Shown here: positions 4,447 through 31,337 of the stretch, in pieces | Numbering within the stretch: the first letter of the stretch is position 1 | Layout of the letters: every line of letters begins with the position of its first letter | Assembly (NCBI GenBank): GCA_910576955.1 | Contig: CAJTJB010000005.1 | Span: 2,844 to 66,843 of the forward strand | Reading direction: 5' to 3' | DNA: 64,000 nt | Source of the DNA: an uncultured Alphaproteobacteria bacterium | GTDB lineage: Bacteria; Pseudomonadota; Alphaproteobacteria; RF32; CAG-239 | Notes under the pieces: model-generated | What the model was told of the DNA's origin: nothing | The model's input: only the letters and a program-made list of their open reading frames with translations | Databases searched by the model: none | Made by a program: the position numbers and the translations under genes

Positions 4447-4734
4447 TTAAAGGCGTATAAACCGCCCTTGTTGTATGGACGGCAAAACCGGAGATTCGCT
4501 TCCGGCTAAAAAAGATATCTTATCAACCCTTGCAAACAACGGACCACCATAACAGCGTTTTATCATTTCATCCACCGCCGTTTCTTCCCCGCACATTAAA
4601 ATCTCGACGCTGCCGTCTTCAACATTTCGAACCCAGCCGGAAAGCCCGCCGATTTCCAGAGCCTGCATAACTGCCCATCGCCGAAACCCGATTCGCTGAA
4701 CACGTCCCTCAATTTTCAGATAAACTTTTTTCAT
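4447..4734 (-). CDS. acyP: Acylphosphatase
   Basis: About 95 aa from MKKVYLKIEGRVQRIGFR...GWVRNVEDGSVE, matching acylphosphatase signature regions; ggag RBS upstream. Confidence 0.7.
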   Translation of the reverse strand: MKKVYLKIEGRVQRIGFRRWAVMQALEIGGLSGWVRNVEDGSVEILMCGEETAVDEMIKRCYGGPLFARVDKISFLAGSESPVLPSIQQGRFIRL

Positions 4735-5203: not shown

Positions 5204-7320
5204 TATTCCGATTGGCTCTTTCTTTCCAACGTGCCGCCGGATAACAGATTAAGCAATCCTTTTGTCGTATCTTTCACCACACCGACACTATCATCCAAAA
5301 TCTGCCCGACATCGCCGGTGGTGGATTGGATAACATTTTCGGGTTTCGGAAACATCGTTTCATATCCTGTTCCCTGCAGCGCCGTATAACACGGTGAGCC
5401 GTCATTTTCCAACAACATCTGCGCCCCGAGATAAACCGGACCGCCCGTAGTCACGCCAACAATGGTTTTAACGGCATTTGCGCTGTCTATACCAATTTTC
5501 GGGTTTTGTATCGTTCCGGTCAGCTTAACCAACGAAGAAAGCGCTTTAGCAATATTCGTATCGGTCAACTTTCCGGCAAAAGGTTTAATACTAACGCTGA
5601 TTTTATCATTTTTCAGATTAACGTTCCCGTTTGCAACCAGCGTAAATTTATCAGCATTCATAACAATTCCGTTCGGAAAATCCGCCTTGCCGTTTTTAAC
5701 ATCCGCACGAACAACCGCACAGCTTAAATTCAAATCGTCATTTCCCTTTGTCAGCTTTAAGGTATCAAACAATTGCGAAATAATATTGCCTTTTAACAGC
5801 CCGATATTGCCTAAATGCAACTGCGATTTATTAACAATGGCTATCGTCTGTCCGTTCAAACTGTCAATAACGCTTGCCGCCGTTGCACCGTTTCCAGACA
5901 AGTTAATATGAACATCCGTATCACTGCCGCTCGCAAAGTTAAACACCGACGAATCGGCATTAAGCGCTTTCATCAATTTCAATAAATTCATTTTAGAAAT
6001 ATCTGCATTAACAGCCACCGACTGATTAGCCGCATTGACATTCAAATTTGCCGCAACACTGCCATCTGCAATAGTTCCGCGCAAAATTTTTACCATTGCC
6101 GCACCATTGTTAATTGTTGCATTAACAGCCAAATCGCTCACTAAAACGGCATTTCCGTTCACAAGCTCTCCAACCGACACATCCGCATTAGCGTTAACAC
6201 TGTATAATTGCTGATAAGGAATCACAACCGCCGGAACCAAAGTTGTTGCCTGTGCCGAACGAATGAGAGAAATTCCCTGTGCCGTTTTGCTGGTGTCCGC
6301 AAAGGATGAAATATCAAATTTAGGCGCATTAATAACTGCAGAAACAGTGGGCACTTTATTGCCCAAATCCGCTTTTATCGTTCCGGTAATAATGTTTCCC
6401 GCAATTTTGAAACTTTTAATTGCCGCATCAACATTTTTCAAATCACCCTTAAAAGCCACCTCGACAGATTCGTTATAACTGCTGTTTTTTCCCATAAAAC
6501 CGGCAGCATCCGCAGTTCCCTCAAAACGGATATTGCCGCCCAAAACGTCATAAAGCAACACCTCCGCATTAGCTTTAATGCCCATAACATCAAGCGCGGC
6601 TTTCACCGGATATCCCGATGCGGAATTAAGAGATTTTAAAGCGCCGAATTCCCCCGAACCATTGTACAGACCGTTATTAACGTCAAATTTAAAATCAATA
6701 TTACCATCGGCATTTTCTTCCAAATTTAACAAGCTGATGTCGTAACTTTCCGTTTTAGCGGATTTATTCGTATAATTGATTTTAACATTTTCTAATGCCA
6801 CCTGCTTAACCACCAAAGCGGATAAAAACGACGCTGCATCATTTGAAGCAGCCGCTTCAGCCGCTTTTGCGCTCTTAATTAAAGAAAATTCAGCCTGTTT
6901 TTCCTGCGTCACCGGCAATTCCGGCAAAGTAAATTCCCAGTTAGCCTCACCGCTCGCACTTTCTTCAAGATTAATAACCGCGCCATTAAGCTTAAACATA
7001 TCAATAACGACATTTTTGCGCAACAGCGGCAACACGGCAAACCCCAAATCCACGACATCCGCGCTGACCATAACCGGATTATTTGCCCATTGCGCATTAG
7101 AGAAAGTCACATTTTTAACTTCAATTGTCGGATTAAACGACGCCTTAACCTGAATATCGCCGATTGTCAACTCGCGCCCTGTCGAACTGCGAACCGTCTT
7201 GATAATCAGCTCTTTATAACGGTTAAAATCAATCTGCGTTAATGCAATATAACCGGCAACAACCGCCGCCGCACACAAACCGATAACGGAAAACAAAACA
7301 ATCTTAATTGCTTTTTTCAT
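5203..7320 (-). CDS. AsmA-family outer-membrane assembly protein
   Basis: 705 aa; single N-terminal TM helix (IVLFSVIGLCAAAVVAGYIAL) followed by a long Asn/Gly/Val-rich beta-rich periplasmic region typical of AsmA/TamB-like proteins. Confidence 0.7.
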   Translation of the reverse strand: MKKAIKIVLFSVIGLCAAAVVAGYIALTQIDFNRYKELIIKTVRSSTGRELTIGDIQVKASFNPTIEVKNVTFSNAQWANNPVMVSADVVDLGFAVLPLLRKNVVIDMFKLNGAVINLEESASGEANWEFTLPELPVTQEKQAEFSLIKSAKAAEAAASNDAASFLSALVVKQVALENVKINYTNKSAKTESYDISLLNLEENADGNIDFKFDVNNGLYNGSGEFGALKSLNSASGYPVKAALDVMGIKANAEVLLYDVLGGNIRFEGTADAAGFMGKNSSYNESVEVAFKGDLKNVDAAIKSFKIAGNIITGTIKADLGNKVPTVSAVINAPKFDISSFADTSKTAQGISLIRSAQATTLVPAVVIPYQQLYSVNANADVSVGELVNGNAVLVSDLAVNATINNGAAMVKILRGTIADGSVAANLNVNAANQSVAVNADISKMNLLKLMKALNADSSVFNFASGSDTDVHINLSGNGATAASVIDSLNGQTIAIVNKSQLHLGNIGLLKGNIISQLFDTLKLTKGNDDLNLSCAVVRADVKNGKADFPNGIVMNADKFTLVANGNVNLKNDKISVSIKPFAGKLTDTNIAKALSSLVKLTGTIQNPKIGIDSANAVKTIVGVTTGGPVYLGAQMLLENDGSPCYTALQGTGYETMFPKPENVIQSTTGDVGQILDDSVGVVKDTTKGLLNLLSGGTLERKSQSE

Positions 7321-23681: not shown

Positions 23682-25364
23682 ATGGCAAATACTGCAGAAA
23701 TTAGAATTCCTGAAATGACTGAAAGCTTTGAAGACCTGCTGAACGAACAATTCGGCGATAAAGGCATTGTCGGCACAGTTATGAAAGGAACTGTTATCCG
23801 TGTAACTGACGACTTCGCAACCGTAGACGTTGGCTTGAAGTCTGAAGGGCGCATTCCGTTGCGCGAATTCGGTAAAAATGACGAATTGAAAGTCGGCGAT
23901 GTTGTAGAAGTTTTGGTTGATAGATACGAAGACAGAGACGGCAACATCGTATTATCTCGTGAAAAAGCTCGCCGTGAAGAAGTATGGCAAGACCTCGAGA
24001 AGATGATGAACAACAATGAAAGAGTAAACGGCGTAATCTTCGGACGCGTTAAAGGCGGCTTTACAGTTGACTTAAACGGCGCTATCGCATTCTTGCCGGG
24101 CTCTCAAATTGATATTCGCCCGATTAAAGACATCTCTCCGTTAATGGGCATTTCCCAGCCGTTCCAGATTTTGAAGATGGATAAGGTTCGCGGAAATATT
24201 GTTGTTTCCCGCCGTGTTGTTCTTGAAGAAACCCGTTCTGCTGCTCGTGCAGAATTGATTGACACCATCAAAGAAGGCTCTGTTTTGGAAGGTATCGTTA
24301 AGAACCTTACTGAATACGGCGCATTCATTGATTTGGGCGGCGTAGACGGCTTATTGCACGTTACAGACATTTCTTGGAAGAGAATCAACCACCCTGCTGA
24401 AGTTTTGACCTTGGGTCAAACCGTAAAAGTTCAGGTTATCAAATTCAACGAAGATACACAGCGCATCAGCCTGGGTATGAAACAGCTTGAAAATGACCCG
24501 TGGCAGGAAGTTGCCGACAAATACAAAATCGGCGAAGTATACAAAGGTAAAGTTACCAACATCACCGATTACGGCGCATTTATCGAACTCGAAGACGGCA
24601 TTGAAGGTCTTGTTCACGTTTCTGAAATGAGCTGGACACGCAAAAACGTACATCCGGGCAAAATCGTTTCCACTTCTCAAGAAGTAGACGTTAAAGTTCT
24701 GGAAGTTGATGCAGACAAACGCCGTATCAGCCTCGGCATCAAACAGTGCACACCAAATCCGTGGGCTGCTTATGTTGAAGAACACCCGATGGGCTCTATC
24801 ATCGAAGGCAAAATCAAAAACATCACCGAATTCGGTTTGTTCATTGGCTTGTCTGATGAAATCGACGGTATGATTCACTTGTCTGATATTTCTTGGGAAA
24901 AATCTGGCGAAGAAGCCGTTAAAGACTACACCAAAGGTCAGACAATCGAAGCTAAAATCATTGATGTTGATGTTGAAAAAGAGCGCATCAGCTTGGGCAT
25001 CAAACAGATGTCTGAAAACAACATCGCCATGACATTGGAAACATTGAAAAAAGGCGACATTGTTAAAGCTGTTGTTACCGGCGCAGATGAAAAGGGCGTT
25101 TCGGTAAACGTTCAGGGCATTGCTGCCACCATCAAAAAGGCAGACTTGTCTAAAGAAAACAACGACCCGATGAGCTACAAAGAGGGTGACATTTTGGAAG
25201 CAAAATTAACCTCCGTAGACCGCAAAAACGCTAAACTCGGCGTTTCTGTAAAAGCTTACGAAATCGAAGAAGAAAAGAAAGCCTTGGAAGAATATTCCAA
25301 TACGCAATCTTCCGGTTCTTCTTTGGGCGAGGCTTTGGGTGCTGCTTTGAAGAACAAAGAATAA
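23682..25364 (+). CDS. rpsA: 30S ribosomal protein S1
   Basis: 560 aa; six tandem S1 RNA-binding repeats (repeated G.V..I...GAFI.L motifs). Confidence 0.95.
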   Translation: MANTAEIRIPEMTESFEDLLNEQFGDKGIVGTVMKGTVIRVTDDFATVDVGLKSEGRIPLREFGKNDELKVGDVVEVLVDRYEDRDGNIVLSREKARREEVWQDLEKMMNNNERVNGVIFGRVKGGFTVDLNGAIAFLPGSQIDIRPIKDISPLMGISQPFQILKMDKVRGNIVVSRRVVLEETRSAARAELIDTIKEGSVLEGIVKNLTEYGAFIDLGGVDGLLHVTDISWKRINHPAEVLTLGQTVKVQVIKFNEDTQRISLGMKQLENDPWQEVADKYKIGEVYKGKVTNITDYGAFIELEDGIEGLVHVSEMSWTRKNVHPGKIVSTSQEVDVKVLEVDADKRRISLGIKQCTPNPWAAYVEEHPMGSIIEGKIKNITEFGLFIGLSDEIDGMIHLSDISWEKSGEEAVKDYTKGQTIEAKIIDVDVEKERISLGIKQMSENNIAMTLETLKKGDIVKAVVTGADEKGVSVNVQGIAATIKKADLSKENNDPMSYKEGDILEAKLTSVDRKNAKLGVSVKAYEIEEEKKALEEYSNTQSSGSSLGEALGAALKNKE

Positions 25365-25385
25365 TTTTATTCTTATAATCCAAAA

Positions 25386-25418
25386 CTCCCTAAACAACAG
25401 TTTAGGGAGTTTTCTTTT
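25386..25418. terminator. Bidirectional rho-independent terminator after rpsA
   Basis: Perfect 10-bp stem ctccctaaac/gtttagggag with a 4-nt loop, followed by TTTTCTTTT and preceded by AAAA. Confidence 0.75.
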
Positions 25419-25439
25419 ATTTAAACACTGTATTTAAAA

Positions 25440-25763
25440 CTATTCGCCGGATTCGGTTTCCTGAATCAGCATATCTTCTTCCACCAACACGGGCTGGCTA
25501 ACAGACGAATCAACCGGAGCAACTTCCACCCCCGGATTATCCGGCAAAGGCTGCATATCGTTATTATTTCCTGCCGGAATGGCAACAGCTGATGCGGTAT
25601 ACGTTTCCATAATCAAAACACCGTTATTTTCAGCATTTTGCGCTGCATTTTTCATTGCTGCATTTGCCGCATTGCTAACCGGAATATCGCCACCGGCAAT
25701 TGCCTGCCCGATCATCAGCGCCAACGCCGCCACGGAAAGGCATCCCATAAAAAATTTATTCAT
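25440..25763 (-). CDS. Small secreted Ala/Asn-rich protein with acidic C-terminus
   Basis: Start at MNKFF; signal peptide ...LMIGQAIA; low-complexity A/N-rich region then an E/D-rich tail. Confidence 0.4.
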   Translation of the reverse strand: MNKFFMGCLSVAALALMIGQAIAGGDIPVSNAANAAMKNAAQNAENNGVLIMETYTASAVAIPAGNNNDMQPLPDNPGVEVAPVDSSVSQPVLVEEDMLIQETESGE

Positions 25764-25836
25764 AACATCCTCCAAAATTAAAATGATACGCCTAACATAT
25801 AATTAGCCATCTAAACATTTCAACTGCCCCTTTTTT

Positions 25837-25872
25837 AAAAAACCAAAAGGGAACAAGCTTACGCTTGCTCCC
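25837..25872 (-). terminator. Rho-independent terminator downstream of OMP paralog 1
   Basis: On the minus strand, hairpin gggagcaagc-gtaa-gcttgttccc followed by UUUUGGUUUUUU. Confidence 0.6.
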
Positions 25873-25898
25873 TTTATAGTGTTAGTCAGTTCCAATTT

Positions 25899-26912
25899 CT
25901 AGAAAGAAGCGGAAACGCCGACTTTGGCGTGACCAGACAATTTAGTCAGGTTCTGCTCCTGCTCCTCACCGTGGTTAACGGAAACAGAGCTGCCGACACC
26001 AAGTTCAGCAAACAGGTTGATATTTTTCCATATAACCTTACTGAAACGAACATCGGCATTCCAGATAAATCCATTATTTTTGGAGCTTATCTGGGCATCA
26101 TCCCTGTCCGTTTTCTGCGACTGATACCCAGCACCGATCATCGGAGCAATGTACCAGTTACGATCTGCAGACTGGAAGACTTTCCATCCCATACGAGCAC
26201 CCAAAGAAAGCTCGGTGTAACGACCAGTGGCCTCGGCTGTGCCGGTGTGCTCTTTAGAACTCATCTCTCCCCACAAACCGAGGATAAGACGATTTCTTTC
26301 GAGCTCTGCGTTAACTCCTACAAGAGGAGTAACGTCACCGCCTTGTGTCCATTTTGCTCCTCCATATAAACCTACAGTCCACCAATTCAGCTTTTTACCA
26401 GCTGCATCGGTGAGCGTGGGCTCATAATAACGGTCAGGGTTGGCTGTCACATCAGCAAGTTGAGCATCGCTCAAATTACTGATATAACCATCCTGCCCGT
26501 GAGAAACCTCTACCTCATCGCTCTCGGGAGCAACGGCAACCACCTGGGGAGCTACGGTCTGTCCTTTAACAACAGAAACGTTGTCAAAGGGTATCTCTTT
26601 CTTGGAAAGAGATGCCACCATAGCCTCGGTCACGCCCTCTCCAGAAAGGAGAGTTTGAAACGCAACCTCTGCTCCCTTAAGGTAAGCCTTGCGGGTTACC
26701 TTAACGGCAGATACGCTACCGGTTGTCCTATTGCGGACGTTAATGCTGGATACACCGACGAGCGTATCAGCAGGGTTTTTCACTAGGATTTCAGCACACG
26801 CCTTCGCGTCAAGTGTGCTTAATCCGTTTACTACCTCCTGTGCGTTGGCGCTACCAGCGGCAAACGCAACCATCATGGCGATGATGGATTTGAAAAAGCT
26901 TGTTGCTTTCAT
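25899..26912 (-). CDS. Outer-membrane beta-barrel protein, paralog 1 (shared N-terminal module, unique C-terminal barrel)
   Basis: 337 aa; signal peptide MKATSFFKSIIAMMVAFAAGSANA; alternating hydrophobic beta-strand pattern; C-terminal Phe (GVSASF). Confidence 0.6.
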   Translation of the reverse strand: MKATSFFKSIIAMMVAFAAGSANAQEVVNGLSTLDAKACAEILVKNPADTLVGVSSINVRNRTTGSVSAVKVTRKAYLKGAEVAFQTLLSGEGVTEAMVASLSKKEIPFDNVSVVKGQTVAPQVVAVAPESDEVEVSHGQDGYISNLSDAQLADVTANPDRYYEPTLTDAAGKKLNWWTVGLYGGAKWTQGGDVTPLVGVNAELERNRLILGLWGEMSSKEHTGTAEATGRYTELSLGARMGWKVFQSADRNWYIAPMIGAGYQSQKTDRDDAQISSKNNGFIWNADVRFSKVIWKNINLFAELGVGSSVSVNHGEEQEQNLTKLSGHAKVGVSASF

Positions 26913-27220
26913 AAGTCTGATTTTTTTATTTTATTTTTTATTTATTTTCAAAGAAATCTAACCAACGCGGAAACATCAGTCAGAACAAAAAACAAAATAA
27001 ACATCTCAAACTATCCCAGAATTAAATAAACATAGTCAAAACCCCTTGGGAACTAACTTTGATAATAACTCTAAAATAATTTGAAATGCCTAATAATGTT
27101 TTTACTACAAACACTATAACATATTTATTTCTTATTTTCAATACTTTTTTCGATATTTCTGTCAATTTGGACTCGGCTAACCTCGCTTTTTTTAAACAAA
27201 TAGACTTTAAATAACGCAAA
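26562..27220. repeat. Direct repeat copy 1 (about 660 bp): 5' 351 nt of OMP paralog 1 plus about 308 nt upstream region
   Basis: Appears identical by inspection to 27989-28650; offset about 1427 bp. Confidence 0.85.
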
Positions 27221-27249
27221 GGGAGCTGAACACAATGTGTTCAACTCCC
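27221..27249 (-). terminator. Rho-independent terminator downstream of OMP paralog 2
   Basis: 14-bp inverted repeat gggagctgaacaca/tgtgttcaactccc (1 mismatch) immediately 3' of the paralog 2 stop on the minus strand; it also marks the exact edge of repeat copy 1. Confidence 0.55.
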
Positions 27250-27262
27250 TTTATCCGATTCG

Positions 27263-28339
27263 TTAGTTCCCATATTGGGAAAGATTGGTCTTACCGAACA
27301 ATGTAATGGGCAAGCTAACGCCAAACTCTAACCCCACATTGTGAGCGTTTGACATATTGTGACGGGTTGCGCCACGAAAATTAGCTTTTGCCCATACCTG
27401 ATAAGCAACACTACCCTGATGGGGACGGAATTCAAAAGTGACTTTTGCCACTCCTGAAAAGTAGTTACCCCAGCTTGACATTTCACCAACAACTTCATCC
27501 TTATCGTTGATAAGGGGAGTTGTTTTGGTCTTCTGCCAAGTGTAGCGCACGCCACCACCTACCCATATACGATAGGTGTCCCATGCTCCAAAAGACAACA
27601 GCTTATAATAAGCCATTGCCTCTGTGGCAACCGTATTGTAACGGTCACCGTCGGCATAGGTTGTCTGCCCCCACTGTCCTCCAACGCTAACGGCAAATTT
27701 CTTGCCGTTATATTGGAGTTCGGCTCCGGCAACGACACCAGCCTTACCATCCTGCAGCGAAACGCCGGCAAGAGGAGCCACACGCAGACCATTCTTATCT
27801 TTGGTCGACGTGGGAACGCTGATGGTGTCACCAGTTGAAGTTGTTACCTCCAACCAACGTGTGTCCTGCGGACCACGGTCTTTGGTGACAACTTCGAGAG
27901 CAGCATTAGCCTCAAGCGCTGCGCGCTTTAAACTTGCCACCTCATCACTCTCGAGAGCAACGGCAACCACCTCGGTAGCAGCAGCTACACCTTTAACAAC
28001 TGAAACGTTGTCAAAGGGTATCTCTTTCTTGGAAAGAGATGCCACCATAGCCTCGGTCACGCCCTCTCCAGAAAGGAGAGTTTGAAACGCAACCTCTGCT
28101 CCCTTAAGGTAAGCCTTGCGGGTTACCTTAACGGCAGATACGCTACCGGTTGTCCTATTGCGGACGTTAATGCTGGATACACCGACGAGCGTATCAGCAG
28201 GGTTTTTCACTAGGATTTCAGCACACGCCTTCGCGTCAAGTGTGCTTAATCCGTTTACTACCTCCTGTGCGTTGGCGCTACCAGCGGCAAACGCAACCAT
28301 CATGGCGATGATGGATTTGAAAAAGCTTGTTGCTTTCAT
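27263..28339 (-). CDS. Outer-membrane beta-barrel protein, paralog 2 (same N-terminal 117 aa as paralog 1, different barrel)
   Basis: 358 aa; first 117 residues identical to paralog 1; divergent Gly/Tyr/Trp-rich beta-strand region; ends ...LSQYGN with no terminal Phe. Confidence 0.6.
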   Translation of the reverse strand: MKATSFFKSIIAMMVAFAAGSANAQEVVNGLSTLDAKACAEILVKNPADTLVGVSSINVRNRTTGSVSAVKVTRKAYLKGAEVAFQTLLSGEGVTEAMVASLSKKEIPFDNVSVVKGVAAATEVVAVALESDEVASLKRAALEANAALEVVTKDRGPQDTRWLEVTTSTGDTISVPTSTKDKNGLRVAPLAGVSLQDGKAGVVAGAELQYNGKKFAVSVGGQWGQTTYADGDRYNTVATEAMAYYKLLSFGAWDTYRIWVGGGVRYTWQKTKTTPLINDKDEVVGEMSSWGNYFSGVAKVTFEFRPHQGSVAYQVWAKANFRGATRHNMSNAHNVGLEFGVSLPITLFGKTNLSQYGN

Positions 28340-28650
28340 AAGTCTGATTTTTTTATTTTATTTTTTATTTATTTTCAAAGAAATCTAACCAACGCGGAAA
28401 CATCAGTCAGAACAAAAAACAAAATAAACATCTCAAACTATCCCAGAATTAAATAAACATAGTCAAAACCCCTTGGGAACTAACTTTGATAATAACTCTA
28501 AAATAATTTGAAATGCCTAATAATGTTTTTACTACAAACACTATAACATATTTATTTCTTATTTTCAATACTTTTTTCGATATTTCTGTCAATTTGGACT
28601 CGGCTAACCTCGCTTTTTTTAAACAAATAGACTTTAAATAACGCAAAATC
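27989..28650. repeat. Direct repeat copy 2 (about 660 bp): 5' 351 nt of OMP paralog 2 plus about 311 nt upstream region
   Basis: Identical by inspection to 26562-27220. Confidence 0.85.
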
Positions 28651-28733
28651 ACCTCAATATCATTCCTCTTTACATTTAAAACAGTATTTGCTAAAATCCC
28701 CAAAGTTTGATTTTTTATTGGAGTGAACGTAAT

Positions 28734-31337
28734 ATGTCTTATAAACAAGAACAAGGTTTAGACAAGCAGTTTAATGCTGAAGAAATTGAAAAACGCTGCG
28801 ATGCATATTGGGGCGCAAACGAAATCTATAAATATGACGCCAAACAAAGCCGTGACAATAGCTTTATGATTGATACCCCGCCGCCCACCGTTTCCGGTTC
28901 TTTGCATATCGGGCATATTTTCAGCTACACCCAAACCGACATCATCGCCCGCTACCAGAGAATGCAGGGCAAAGCGGTGTTTTACCCCATCGGCTGGGAT
29001 GATAACGGTTTGCCGACCGAGCGCCGTGTTCAAAACTACTATAACATCACCTGCAACCCCAAAGTTGCTTATGACCCGAATTTCAAACCGGTTCATATCG
29101 AAAACAGCAAAGACGAACGCAAAGAAATCTCGCGTAAAAACTTTATTGAGGCTTGCGAAACCCTAACCGCCGAAGACGAAAAGATTTTTGAAAACGTTTT
29201 CCGCCGTATCGGACACTCTTATGACTGGAATTTGACTTATTCCACCATCAGCCCCAAATCAATCAAACTTTCACAGCAATCTTTCCTCGATTTATATAAA
29301 AAAGGCAAACTCCTCGCCGTTGAAGCCCCGATTATGTGGGATGTCACATTCAAATCTGCCGTTTCCCAAGCCGAAGTGGAAGATAAAGAAATGGAAGGCT
29401 TTTTCCACGATATTCGTTTTAGCGTTAAAGACAGCAACGAAACCTTTACTATCGCCACCACCCGTCCGGAATTGTTAGCCGCCTGCTTGGCAATTGTGGC
29501 TCATCCGGATGACGAACGCTATAAACACCTTTTCGGCAAAACAGCCATTGTGCCGCTGTTTGATATTCCTGTTCCGATTGTTCCGTCCGAACACGCCGAA
29601 AAAGACAAAGGAACCGGCATTATGATGGTTTGCACTTTTGGCGACGCCGCAGACGTTGCATGGTGGAAAAAATCCGGTATGCCGATTAAACAAATTATCG
29701 GAATGGATGGCAAAATTTTAAACATCACCTACGGCGAGGGCGTGTTCACAACCTTAAACAAAGAAGAGGCTCAAAAGAACTTTAACCAGATTATCGGCTT
29801 GCCCGCACACATTGCCAAGAAAAAAGTTGCGGAAATGCTGAAAGAGCAAGGTTTCTTAATCGGCGAACCGAAAAAGATTGTTCATCCGGTTAAATTTTAC
29901 GAAAAAGGCAATTTGCCGCTCGAGTTCGTTTCTTCCCGCCAGTGGTTTATTAACCTGATGGATATGAAAGAGGAAATGCTCAAAGCCGGACGCCAAATCG
30001 AATGGCTGCCGTCTTATATGCAACACCGCTTTGAAACCTGGACAGAGGGCTTAAACCAAGACTGGTGCATCAGCCGCCAGCGCTATTTCGGCGTTCCGTT
30101 CCCTGTTTGGTACAAAGTGGATGCCAACGGCAATATTGATTACAACAGCATTATCCTGCCTGATGAAAGCCAATTGCCGATAGACCCGATGGCAGACGTA
30201 CCTGCAGGCTACACCGAAGCACAACGCAACCAGCCAAACGGTTTTGCCGGCGATACGGACGTTATGGATACTTGGGCAACATCTTCCCTGACCCCGCAAA
30301 TTGCCTTGGCACAAGCTGAAGAGGGCTCAAACCTTTCTATGCCGTTTGATATTCGCCCGCAGGCGCACGACATCATCCGCACATGGGCGTTTTACACCGT
30401 TGCCAAAAGCTTAATGCACGAAAACACTATCCCGTGGTATAAAACGCTCATCAGCGGTTTTATTCTCGACCCGGACCGCAAAAAAATGAGCAAATCCAAA
30501 GGAAACGTTGTTACCCCGATGCACCTGATTGAAAACCACTCGGCAGATGCCGTCCGCTATTGGGCAGCCAAAGCCAAACTGGGCGCCGACACGGCTTTTG
30601 AAGAAAAAATGATGCAGCAAGGGCGCAAACTCGTTGTGAAAATCTACAATGCCAGCAAGTTTGTGTTTATGATTGTCGGCAACTCAACTTCTGCCGATTA
30701 TACCAAAGACATCACAAACACGCTTGATAAATCTTGGGTTAAAAAACTTGCCGATACCGTTAAAGCTGCCAAACAGAGCTTTGAAAACTTTGACTATTCT
30801 TTGGCATTAGACGCCATTGAAACCCGTTTCTGGGATTTCTGCGACAACTATGTTGAGATTGTTAAAAAGCGTGCTTACTCCGAAGACAACGCCTCCGCAA
30901 TCGCCACATTAAAGCTTTCACTTGATACCTTTATCAAACTGTTAGCGCCGTTCTGCCCGTTTATCACCGAAGAGGTTTATCAAGCCCGCCCGTGGAAACA
31001 GGCTGCCGATATTTCCGTCCACAAAGAACTTTGGACACCACTAAACGGTTTGGCTGATTTTGCGGCAACGGATTCGCTGTTATATGACACAACCTCTGCT
31101 GTTTCAACTGAAATCCGCAAGCAAAAAACAATAGAAAACAAATCGCAGAAAAACCCCGTCTTAAGCTTAACCATCAAAGCAAACGAAAAGACTATCGCTT
31201 GCTTAAAAGCTAACGACAGCGATTTGCTAAACGTGGGAAACATTGTTGAAAACGGTATTTCTTACGAACCGGCACAAGAACTCTTAATCGAAAATATCAA
31301 ACTCGATCAAGATTTTGTTCCGGAAAAGAAAAAATAA
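28734..31337 (+). CDS. valS: Valine--tRNA ligase (short 876-aa form)
   Basis: Start at MSYKQEQ; HIGH motif GSLHIGHIFSYT; KMSKS motif KKMSKSKGN; no long C-terminal coiled coil. Confidence 0.95.
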   Translation: MSYKQEQGLDKQFNAEEIEKRCDAYWGANEIYKYDAKQSRDNSFMIDTPPPTVSGSLHIGHIFSYTQTDIIARYQRMQGKAVFYPIGWDDNGLPTERRVQNYYNITCNPKVAYDPNFKPVHIENSKDERKEISRKNFIEACETLTAEDEKIFENVFRRIGHSYDWNLTYSTISPKSIKLSQQSFLDLYKKGKLLAVEAPIMWDVTFKSAVSQAEVEDKEMEGFFHDIRFSVKDSNETFTIATTRPELLAACLAIVAHPDDERYKHLFGKTAIVPLFDIPVPIVPSEHAEKDKGTGIMMVCTFGDAADVAWWKKSGMPIKQIIGMDGKILNITYGEGVFTTLNKEEAQKNFNQIIGLPAHIAKKKVAEMLKEQGFLIGEPKKIVHPVKFYEKGNLPLEFVSSRQWFINLMDMKEEMLKAGRQIEWLPSYMQHRFETWTEGLNQDWCISRQRYFGVPFPVWYKVDANGNIDYNSIILPDESQLPIDPMADVPAGYTEAQRNQPNGFAGDTDVMDTWATSSLTPQIALAQAEEGSNLSMPFDIRPQAHDIIRTWAFYTVAKSLMHENTIPWYKTLISGFILDPDRKKMSKSKGNVVTPMHLIENHSADAVRYWAAKAKLGADTAFEEKMMQQGRKLVVKIYNASKFVFMIVGNSTSADYTKDITNTLDKSWVKKLADTVKAAKQSFENFDYSLALDAIETRFWDFCDNYVEIVKKRAYSEDNASAIATLKLSLDTFIKLLAPFCPFITEEVYQARPWKQAADISVHKELWTPLNGLADFAATDSLLYDTTSAVSTEIRKQKTIENKSQKNPVLSLTIKANEKTIACLKANDSDLLNVGNIVENGISYEPAQELLIENIKLDQDFVPEKKK

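Follow-up and report, generated by a model that had tools for sequence, protein, structure and literature searches.

How do two adjacent genes come to begin identically, promoter included, while the parts of their proteins that follow are only distantly related? The question is raised by a pair of minus-strand genes for predicted outer-membrane proteins (OMPs), here called paralog 1 and paralog 2, in an uncultured Alphaproteobacteria bacterium (GTDB lineage RF32; CAG-239). The window, meaning the whole stretch of DNA that was analysed, comprises 64,000 nucleotides (nt) of contig CAJTJB010000005.1 (GenBank assembly GCA_910576955.1, positions 2,844 to 66,843 of the forward strand), and positions below are counted from its first letter. 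The genes are tandem paralogs of long standing and belong to a small, lineage-restricted family of two-domain OMPs. Their 5' modules very probably stay alike through gene conversion, in which the tandem copies repeatedly undergo non-reciprocal homologous recombination with each other. The initial annotation of the window had proposed recent gene conversion or duplication, with concerted evolution of the regulatory and N-terminal module. The conversion branch of that proposal is the one supported, since the barrels have separate orthologues and the module is alike within genomes and diverged between them.

Extent of the shared 5' module

Self-BLAST of the window detects one sole long direct repeat, 26512-27220 against 27939-28647 (710 nt, 98.3% identical). 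Within it, position-by-position comparison delimits an exact run of 646 nt (26575-27220 and 28002-28647, offset 1427) with zero mismatches and zero indels. The runner-up exact direct repeat in the 64-kb window measures 23 nt, against 14-16 nt in shuffled windows; the repeat is real, and chance comes nowhere near explaining it. Each copy holds 308-309 nt of non-coding DNA and the first 337 coding nt of its gene. This confirms the annotated 5' module of about 660 bp shared by two adjacent OMP genes, with roughly 310 bp of upstream non-coding DNA per copy. Also as annotated, copy 1 ends at the terminator-like hairpin of paralog 2 (27217-27253), which it abuts with a 4-nt overlap. Copy 2 starts about 20 nt from the predicted valS promoter.

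Some details of the earlier description change. The homopolymer difference of 1-3 nt between the copies does not exist, as the comparison shows no indel, and copy 2 ends at 28647, not 28650. Identity over the first 351 coding nt (117 codons) holds for the proteins, which are the same through residue 117 because the mismatch at 26574 is synonymous (TCT/TCA); the nucleotides are exact only from +1 to +337. The next 63 nt or so (26512-26574 against 27939-28001) are about 76% alike, and beyond these tails there is no similarity. The tail of copy 1 is probably a remnant of an older or longer conversion tract. The barrel-encoding parts downstream are indeed only distantly related, the C-terminal 170 amino acids (aa) being 38% identical in a forced global alignment.

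Probable gene conversion and its alternatives

Related loci (numbered with the prefix L) were collected with a conserved small neighbouring protein as a synteny probe, which recovered 13 loci, all titled uncultured Alphaproteobacteria and several of them named as mouse-gut (MGBC) or water-deer colon and rectum metagenome-assembled genomes (MAGs). L004 and L005 were added from contigs encoding homologues, and scanning metagenomes for the promoter motif brought in L039 and others. L007, one of the closest relatives (89% nucleotide identity), is represented by a contig that ends short of the OMP genes. A scan of JGI metagenomes with the N-terminal module of the window gave no matches, and a back-translated alignment of 10 proteins contained no stretch conserved enough for a genome scan. 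Both genes and enough upstream DNA are present at ten loci (the window, L004, L005, L008, L012, L013, L015, L017, L019 and L039). A direct repeat was found at all ten: 153-710 nt long, 87-100% identical and spaced by about 1.2-1.5 kb. It spans the promoter and leader in every case and includes the coding start in all but L005; the B copy of L005 seems to have lost most of its leader. At the tract edges about 100 nt suffice for identity to drop from 100% to 30-40%.

One alternative is that the whole gene was duplicated in tandem very recently and that its 3' half then diverged rapidly or was replaced, without any conversion. This would account for tandem genes in direct orientation, about 1.43 kb apart, with identical 5' parts; duplication is, besides, the commonest source of such repeats. 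The barrels speak against it. C-terminal barrels are 21-38% identical within a genome and 50-96% identical between orthologues. The barrel of paralog 2 matches that of L004A at 63% and the barrel of paralog 1 that of L004B at 58%, compared with 29-33% in the cross comparisons; over its whole length the L004 protein P0003, the orthologue of paralog 2, is 53% identical to it. The same two types, A and B, recur in the closely related L005 group (L005, L013, L015, L017 and L019), where barrels are 47-96% identical in A-A and B-B comparisons and 20-38% in A-B comparisons. Because both barrel types have their own orthologues in L004 and are shared across the L005 group, the duplication predates the species. 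Zero substitutions in 646 nt are moreover irreconcilable with the divergence of about 60-70% just 3' of the tract, and a recent whole-gene duplication is very improbable.

Inside the module the relationships are reversed. The 300 nt upstream of the genes are 100% identical within the window, 97% within L004, 89% within L008 and 89% within L012, whereas between these four genomes they are 66-84% identical (75-76% for the window against L004). The N-terminal 100 residues are 100% identical within the window, 91% within L004 and 100% within L008, against 29-43% between these genomes (41-43% for the window and L004). The 337 nt of module coding sequence have no blastn match in L004, although the flanking genes valS and rpsA match at 82% and 88% and each barrel matches its orthologue, and only its orthologue, at about 70%. 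Paralogs alike within a genome inside the tract, orthology outside it, and a mosaic with sharp boundaries together make up the defining pattern of concerted evolution. The module has been homogenised separately in several lineages. The end-points of the tracts differ by lineage (646, 462 and 525 nt in the window, L004 and L008, shorter in the others), as independent conversion events would lead one to expect. Shorter traces are visible in the L005 group, and in L017 the copies are identical from -58 to about +90. As to direction, the module of the window is 47-48% identical to the paralog-2-type N-termini of the L005 group and 38-39% identical to the paralog-1-type ones, a weak hint that paralog 2 may have been the donor.

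Could purifying selection alone hold the modules identical, with no exchange of sequence? The promoter, the upstream motif and the leader hairpin are conserved in all species, and upstream identities in the L005 group are similar within and between genomes, as such an account would have it. Synonymous sites are not frozen by selection, however, and yet 337 coding nt are identical; the same coding region lacks detectable nucleotide similarity to L004 and retains only the low amino acid identity given above. Non-coding positions that vary by 16-34% between lineages are likewise identical within the window, L004 and L008. Selection by itself is disfavoured for these three genomes and highly unlikely as the general cause, but it partly explains the conserved core of promoter and leader.

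Such selection may in fact be what keeps conversion going. Clade-wide purifying selection on the promoter and leader would always leave enough identity for recombination to start. Exchange would begin there, and the tract would run 3' into the region coding for the signal peptide and N-domain, stopping where homology ends, in the linker after about residue 117-135; the tracts of the window and of L004 fade at this place. The last tract in the window genome (-309 to +337) would be too recent for any substitution. The recombination is presumably RecA-dependent and could take place within the chromosome or between sister chromosomes. As a result both barrels would be expressed from identical promoters and leaders, with the same signal peptide and N-domain, and the two genes would be co-expressed.

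The repeat could also be thought of as a programmed recombination device, in which the paralog 2 barrel is deleted or amplified, or barrels are swapped behind a single expression module, so that surface composition varies. The 646-nt direct repeats do flank the paralog 2 barrel, which makes loop-out or amplification by RecA mechanically possible; between species the valS-rpsA interval differs in the content and order of its OMP genes; and P0001 was indexed in 57 blocks compared with 43 for paralog 2, an excess that contig breaks explain equally well. On the other hand, no recombinase gene, inverted repeat or site-like sequence occurs between 24 and 31 kb of the window, the genes are both complete, with a promoter each, neither a deleted nor an amplified variant turned up, and all assemblies of the species are identical. 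A dedicated device therefore has very little probability. Two related candidates were rejected: an invertible element, as there are no inverted repeats between 24 and 31 kb of the window, and a phase-variable simple-sequence-repeat locus, as the copies differ by no indel, contain no simple-sequence repeat (the longest runs are A7 and T6) and are the same in L001, L002 and L003 as in the window.

A further, very unlikely explanation is an assembly artefact, in which one gene or two strain alleles were mis-assembled in tandem or diverged copies were made identical by repeat collapse. All related records identified are MAGs or metagenome contigs, and six contigs break inside the module: L003, from the same species, and L009, L010, L011, L014 and L018, from related species, which start 61-244 nt upstream of the second OMP gene. 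L003, a second MAG of the window species, stops 55 nt inside the second copy, as is typical of contigs broken by a repeat. Breaks at a repeat are, however, what a real repeat is expected to cause. Because 23-24 contigs from many assemblies encode both proteins in tandem, next to the same neighbours, and because the junction from the paralog 2 terminator into copy 1 (27221-27262 into 27220) is unique contiguous sequence, the tandem pair is real. The copies in related species also differ from each other (31 mismatches in 628 nt in L004; 87-97% identity in L013, L015, L017, L019 and L039), and collapse cannot yield such differences. The warning in the initial annotation that long perfect repeats are an assembly hazard was thus justified, but the tandem layout itself stands. 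It is possible that a few real differences between the copies, roughly 2% or less, were smoothed out. The 4.6-kb metagenome contig L020 has 127-nt identical ends (1-127 and 4475-4601) that lie inside the promoter module, a feature which could be counted on the side of an artefact; these ends most likely stem from a cycle in the assembly graph, running through tandem modules, and not from a truly circular molecule.

Several observations weigh against recurrent conversion or limit its reach. Short-read MAG assemblers can merge near-identical copies and inflate identity, and a value of 100% is best read as at least about 98%. At the 3' edge of its repeat L008 contains a run of N (about 2818-2917) with exact 77-nt duplicates on both sides; this is a scaffolding artefact and makes the 100% identity in L008 less trustworthy. 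In the L005 group the upstream DNA is 89-95% identical within genomes, barely above the 85-94% between genomes, and the N-domains follow orthology (A-A 35-83%, B-B 36-89%, A-B within genomes 38-57%). Most of the upstream similarity there is accounted for by selection acting on promoter and leader, and conversion is visible only over short stretches. Because the order of the barrel types is swapped between the window and L004 on one side and the L005 group on the other, orthology is less secure at the deepest comparisons. The available assemblies of the window species (L001, L002 and L003, 100% identical to the window) are all clonal and give no population evidence for ongoing conversion. Support for gene conversion comes from the sequence pattern, and no recombination event was observed directly.

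Promoter, leader and protein family

The initial annotation had suggested that both genes would stand under one identical promoter. This fits a predicted sigma-70-type promoter with an extended -10, conserved upstream of every family member examined (Table 1). The promoter hexamers, the TG of the extended -10 and both upstream blocks are kept in 18/18 upstream regions from 9 genomes. The motif TTTAAAGTCTATTTGTTTAAA has only two copies in the window, where 0.02 would be expected by chance, and may be a regulator or UP site.

Table 1. Features of the two OMP genes and their surroundings in the window, followed by the exact runs in the genomes compared.
Feature	Position	Strand	Remarks
Paralog 1 gene	25899..26912	-	337 aa; open reading frame (ORF); same gene read on 23 contigs
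Paralog 2 gene	27263..28339	-	358 aa; ORF; signal peptide and N-domain as in paralog 1, different barrel
Copy 1, exact 646-nt repeat	26575..27220	-	5' module of paralog 1: upstream motif, promoter, leader, codons 1-112
Copy 2, exact 646-nt repeat	28002..28647	-	5' module of paralog 2
Partly similar tail, copy 1	26512..26574	-	encodes end of N-domain and start of linker; holds the mismatches
Partly similar tail, copy 2	27939..28001	-	counterpart of copy 1 tail
Predicted sigma-70-type promoter, paralog 1	27113..27141	-	TTGAAA-17-TATAGT, TG extended -10
Predicted promoter, paralog 2	28540..28568	-	identical to paralog 1 promoter
Upstream motif TTTAAAGTCTATTTGTTTAAA, copy 1	27191..27211	-	at 5' edge of module; conserved clade-wide
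Upstream motif TTTAAAGTCTATTTGTTTAAA, copy 2	28618..28638	-	same motif
Second conserved block GAGTCCAAATTGACAGAA	27157-27174	-	between TTTAAAGTCTATTTGTTTAAA and promoter; also in copy 2
Leader hairpin, about 89 nt, paralog 1	27001..27089	-	start of leader; followed by U-rich tract
Leader hairpin, about 89 nt, paralog 2	28428..28516	-	identical to paralog 1 hairpin
Terminator-like hairpin, paralog 2	27217..27253	-	sets upstream limit of copy 1
Terminator-like hairpin, paralog 1	25846..25875	-	predicted
Small secreted-protein ORF	25440-25775	-	between paralog 1 and rpsA
Exact run, window	-309 to +337 relative to ATG		646 nt
Exact run, L004	-261 to +201		462 nt; then 62-90% identity to +345
Exact run, L008			525 nt; start codon probably 69 nt downstream of ORF start; N gap at repeat edge
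Exact runs, six other genomes			59-177 nt; promoter, leader, signal peptide; 3' end -26 to +90

Between the promoter and the ATG of each paralog lies a leader of about 194 nt. The whole window leader folds at -55.8 kcal/mol (z = -7.9 against shuffled sequence). RNAalifold returned no consensus structure from a plain MAFFT alignment of the leaders; the structure was taken from the fold of the window leader itself and was checked afterwards with pair counts and a covariance model. When 14 distinct leaders are aligned with MAFFT, pairing in helix 1 amounts to 86.7%, with 5 pairs changed on both sides, whereas a control in which the partners were slid by 1-2 columns gives 52-56% pairing for the whole structure (49-56% over both leader alignments). 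The model-based alignment gives 88% and 9 pairs changed on both sides, figures that come from an alignment fitted to the model and containing two antisense rows that inflate the count. With the covariance model built from the leader alignment, 25 matches are obtained on the sense strand, every one of them upstream of a family gene. Five of them lie outside the training set (two sites in L039, and L037, L022 and L028); the hairpin of the window scores 86 bits. Against Rfam the leader has no match at E <= 1.

The two arms of the hairpin, AGGCAUUUCAAAUUAUUUUAGAG and its complement, are present in every species. The hairpin also stands at the start of the leader in L004, L005, L008, L009, L011-L013, L015, L017-L019, L022, L028, L037 and L039, and in most species a U-rich tract follows on its 3' side. 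About 45 nt upstream of the ATG the window has a second leader hairpin with a T-run (26925-27000, minus strand; terminator-like core at 26957-26984), which could be a leader attenuator. L004 contains an analogous hairpin (GAUGCC/GGCGUC with a U-run), and the L005 group does not.

With its clade-wide promoter and upstream motif and its leader hairpin with covariation, the non-coding part of the module looks functional. The leader could act as a 5' stabiliser of the mRNA, a transcription attenuator or a regulator-binding RNA. One may go further and suppose that the hairpin, U-rich tail and upstream motif form an undescribed family-specific cis-regulatory unit, and that identity of the whole module is selected so that two barrels are made in lock-step with the same N-domain, in place of being a neutral by-product of recombination. 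This is a tentative idea and, on balance, a rather doubtful one.

Some candidates in the non-coding DNA were set aside. The 65-aa and 101-aa ORFs over the promoter and leader (27022-27219 and 28449-28754) and the 90-aa antisense ORFs were judged spurious, as the region carries non-triplet indels between species and the N-termini differ between the two ORF copies. A sub-threshold Rfam match to BjrC68 (25839-25902, minus strand; 27 bits against a gathering score of 39) lies over the terminator hairpin of paralog 1 and is probably just that terminator.

Family proteins consist of a signal peptide, an N-terminal domain of about 95 aa, a linker and a small C-terminal beta-barrel. Paralog 1 begins with a Sec signal peptide (…SANA|QE), followed by an N-domain (residues about 25-117), a linker and a barrel of about 160 aa that ends in …VGVSASF. 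The signal peptide common to both proteins is MKATSFFKSIIAMMVAFAAGSANA|QE, of the AxA|Q type. After residue 117, where identity ends, the paralogs share a short linker motif, and they become unalignable after about residue 135. The last residue of paralog 1 is Phe, and paralog 2 has a 10-aa tail after …ITLF.

Both proteins are probably located in the outer membrane. Paralog 1 matches the Pfam family OMP_b-brl (PF13505), small beta-barrel OMPs of the Omp25/Omp31/OmpA-barrel type, at E = 4e-5 and 24.3 bits, below the gathering cut-off of 28.7. The Pfam search gave no OMP_b-brl match for paralog 2, and 7/37 family members match at E <= 0.01. Any resemblance to OMP_b-brl would lie in the weak profile match of the C-terminal 160 aa or so, the signal peptide, the C-terminal Phe of paralog 1 and 8 predicted strands. 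The difference, besides the sub-threshold score, is the N-terminal domain plus linker (about 150 aa) that precedes the barrel here and that has no match in Pfam, among PDB sequences or with Foldseek. An AlphaFold2 (AF2) model shows an alpha/beta N-domain (residues about 31-115, with a predicted local distance difference test score, pLDDT, of 70-79) and 8 C-terminal strands at low confidence (barrel pLDDT below 50). All top Foldseek matches are outer-membrane barrels, none significant (E >= 0.019), among them the barrels of Hbp and NalP (E = 0.019, TM 0.2). A type V autotransporter, which needs a 12-stranded translocator at the C-terminus and an N-terminal passenger domain, was rejected, as there is no Pfam Autotransporter match and the barrel has only about 160 aa and 8 predicted strands. 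No PDB sequence relative was found, and the family is small, with 35 matches at E <= 1e-3 among 1.84 billion cluster representatives.

Neighbourhood and known parallels

Both OMP genes lie between rpsA (23682-25364, plus strand) and valS (about 28707-31337, plus strand). The valS-rpsA interval is a variable OMP island (25365-28706 in the window, 7690-11871 in L004, 6550-11299 in L005). Genomes of the L005 group have in it a third, barrel-only OMP of 202-205 aa, and L004 and L005 encode an extra secreted protein of 276-285 aa that the window does not. The small secreted protein next to rpsA (107-111 aa) is conserved in 13 related species and stands directly downstream of the OMP genes in the window, L004 and L005. 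It contains NAAQNAENNGVLI-ETYTAS, ends in …VEEDMLIQETE-GE, has no Pfam match and might be a functional partner of the OMPs. Two other repeats were noted. A 79-nt inverted repeat, 95% identical, surrounds one family OMP gene and its promoter on a rumen-type metagenome contig (L030 58-135 / 1585-1663; L031 3733-3811 / 5261-5338), and nothing comparable occurs in the window. A three-copy direct repeat family inside rpsA (24426-25007, plus strand; 261-nt period, 67-73% identical) represents the repeated S1 domains.

The closest parallels are found in Helicobacter pylori, where segmental concerted evolution by intragenomic gene conversion was described for babA/babB, sabA/sabB/hopQ and homA/homB (PMC3960876). 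There too homogenisation within a strain is confined to a segment and the remainder of each gene keeps its own history, which yields chimeric genes, and the process was attributed to RecA-dependent intragenomic recombination (PMC3960876). The H. pylori paralogs, however, are at separate loci and the concerted segment of bab and hom is at the 3' end, whereas here the genes are adjacent and the tract is a 5' one with promoter and leader. In H. pylori it was shown experimentally that conversion alters adhesin expression; the present case is known from sequence alone. The protein families of the two systems have no sequence relationship. More generally, OMP genes have been named as frequent cases of short-term concerted evolution of duplicated bacterial genes (PMC6053082). 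The tufA/tufB genes and rRNA operons share with this locus the basic sign of recurrent gene conversion, a closer likeness between paralogs of one genome than between orthologues of different genomes. In most textbook cases, though, the gene is converted over its full length, and dosage or functional identity is given as the reason, while here only the regulatory and N-terminal module is concerned and the barrels remain 21-38% identical.

The process is therefore a known one, and the locus is a clear, ordinary case of short-term concerted evolution of OMP paralogs that opens no new kind of biology. It differs from the H. pylori cases in its tandem genes, in the converted 5' unit with promoter and structured leader, in its recurrence across a clade of uncultured gut Alphaproteobacteria, and in an undescribed protein family and leader; its most novel element is the conserved leader hairpin. 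A practical consequence is that the repeat breaks short-read assemblies in this clade. The OMP family that the locus defines is tiny and uncharacterised and has a structured leader that is conserved. The locus offers a clean multi-species case of segmental concerted evolution, in which a module for regulation, targeting and the N-domain is homogenised and the barrels are anciently divergent. A simple mechanism is suggested as well, in which a promoter and leader conserved by selection may provide a lasting anchor of homology from which conversion can enter the neighbouring coding region again and again.

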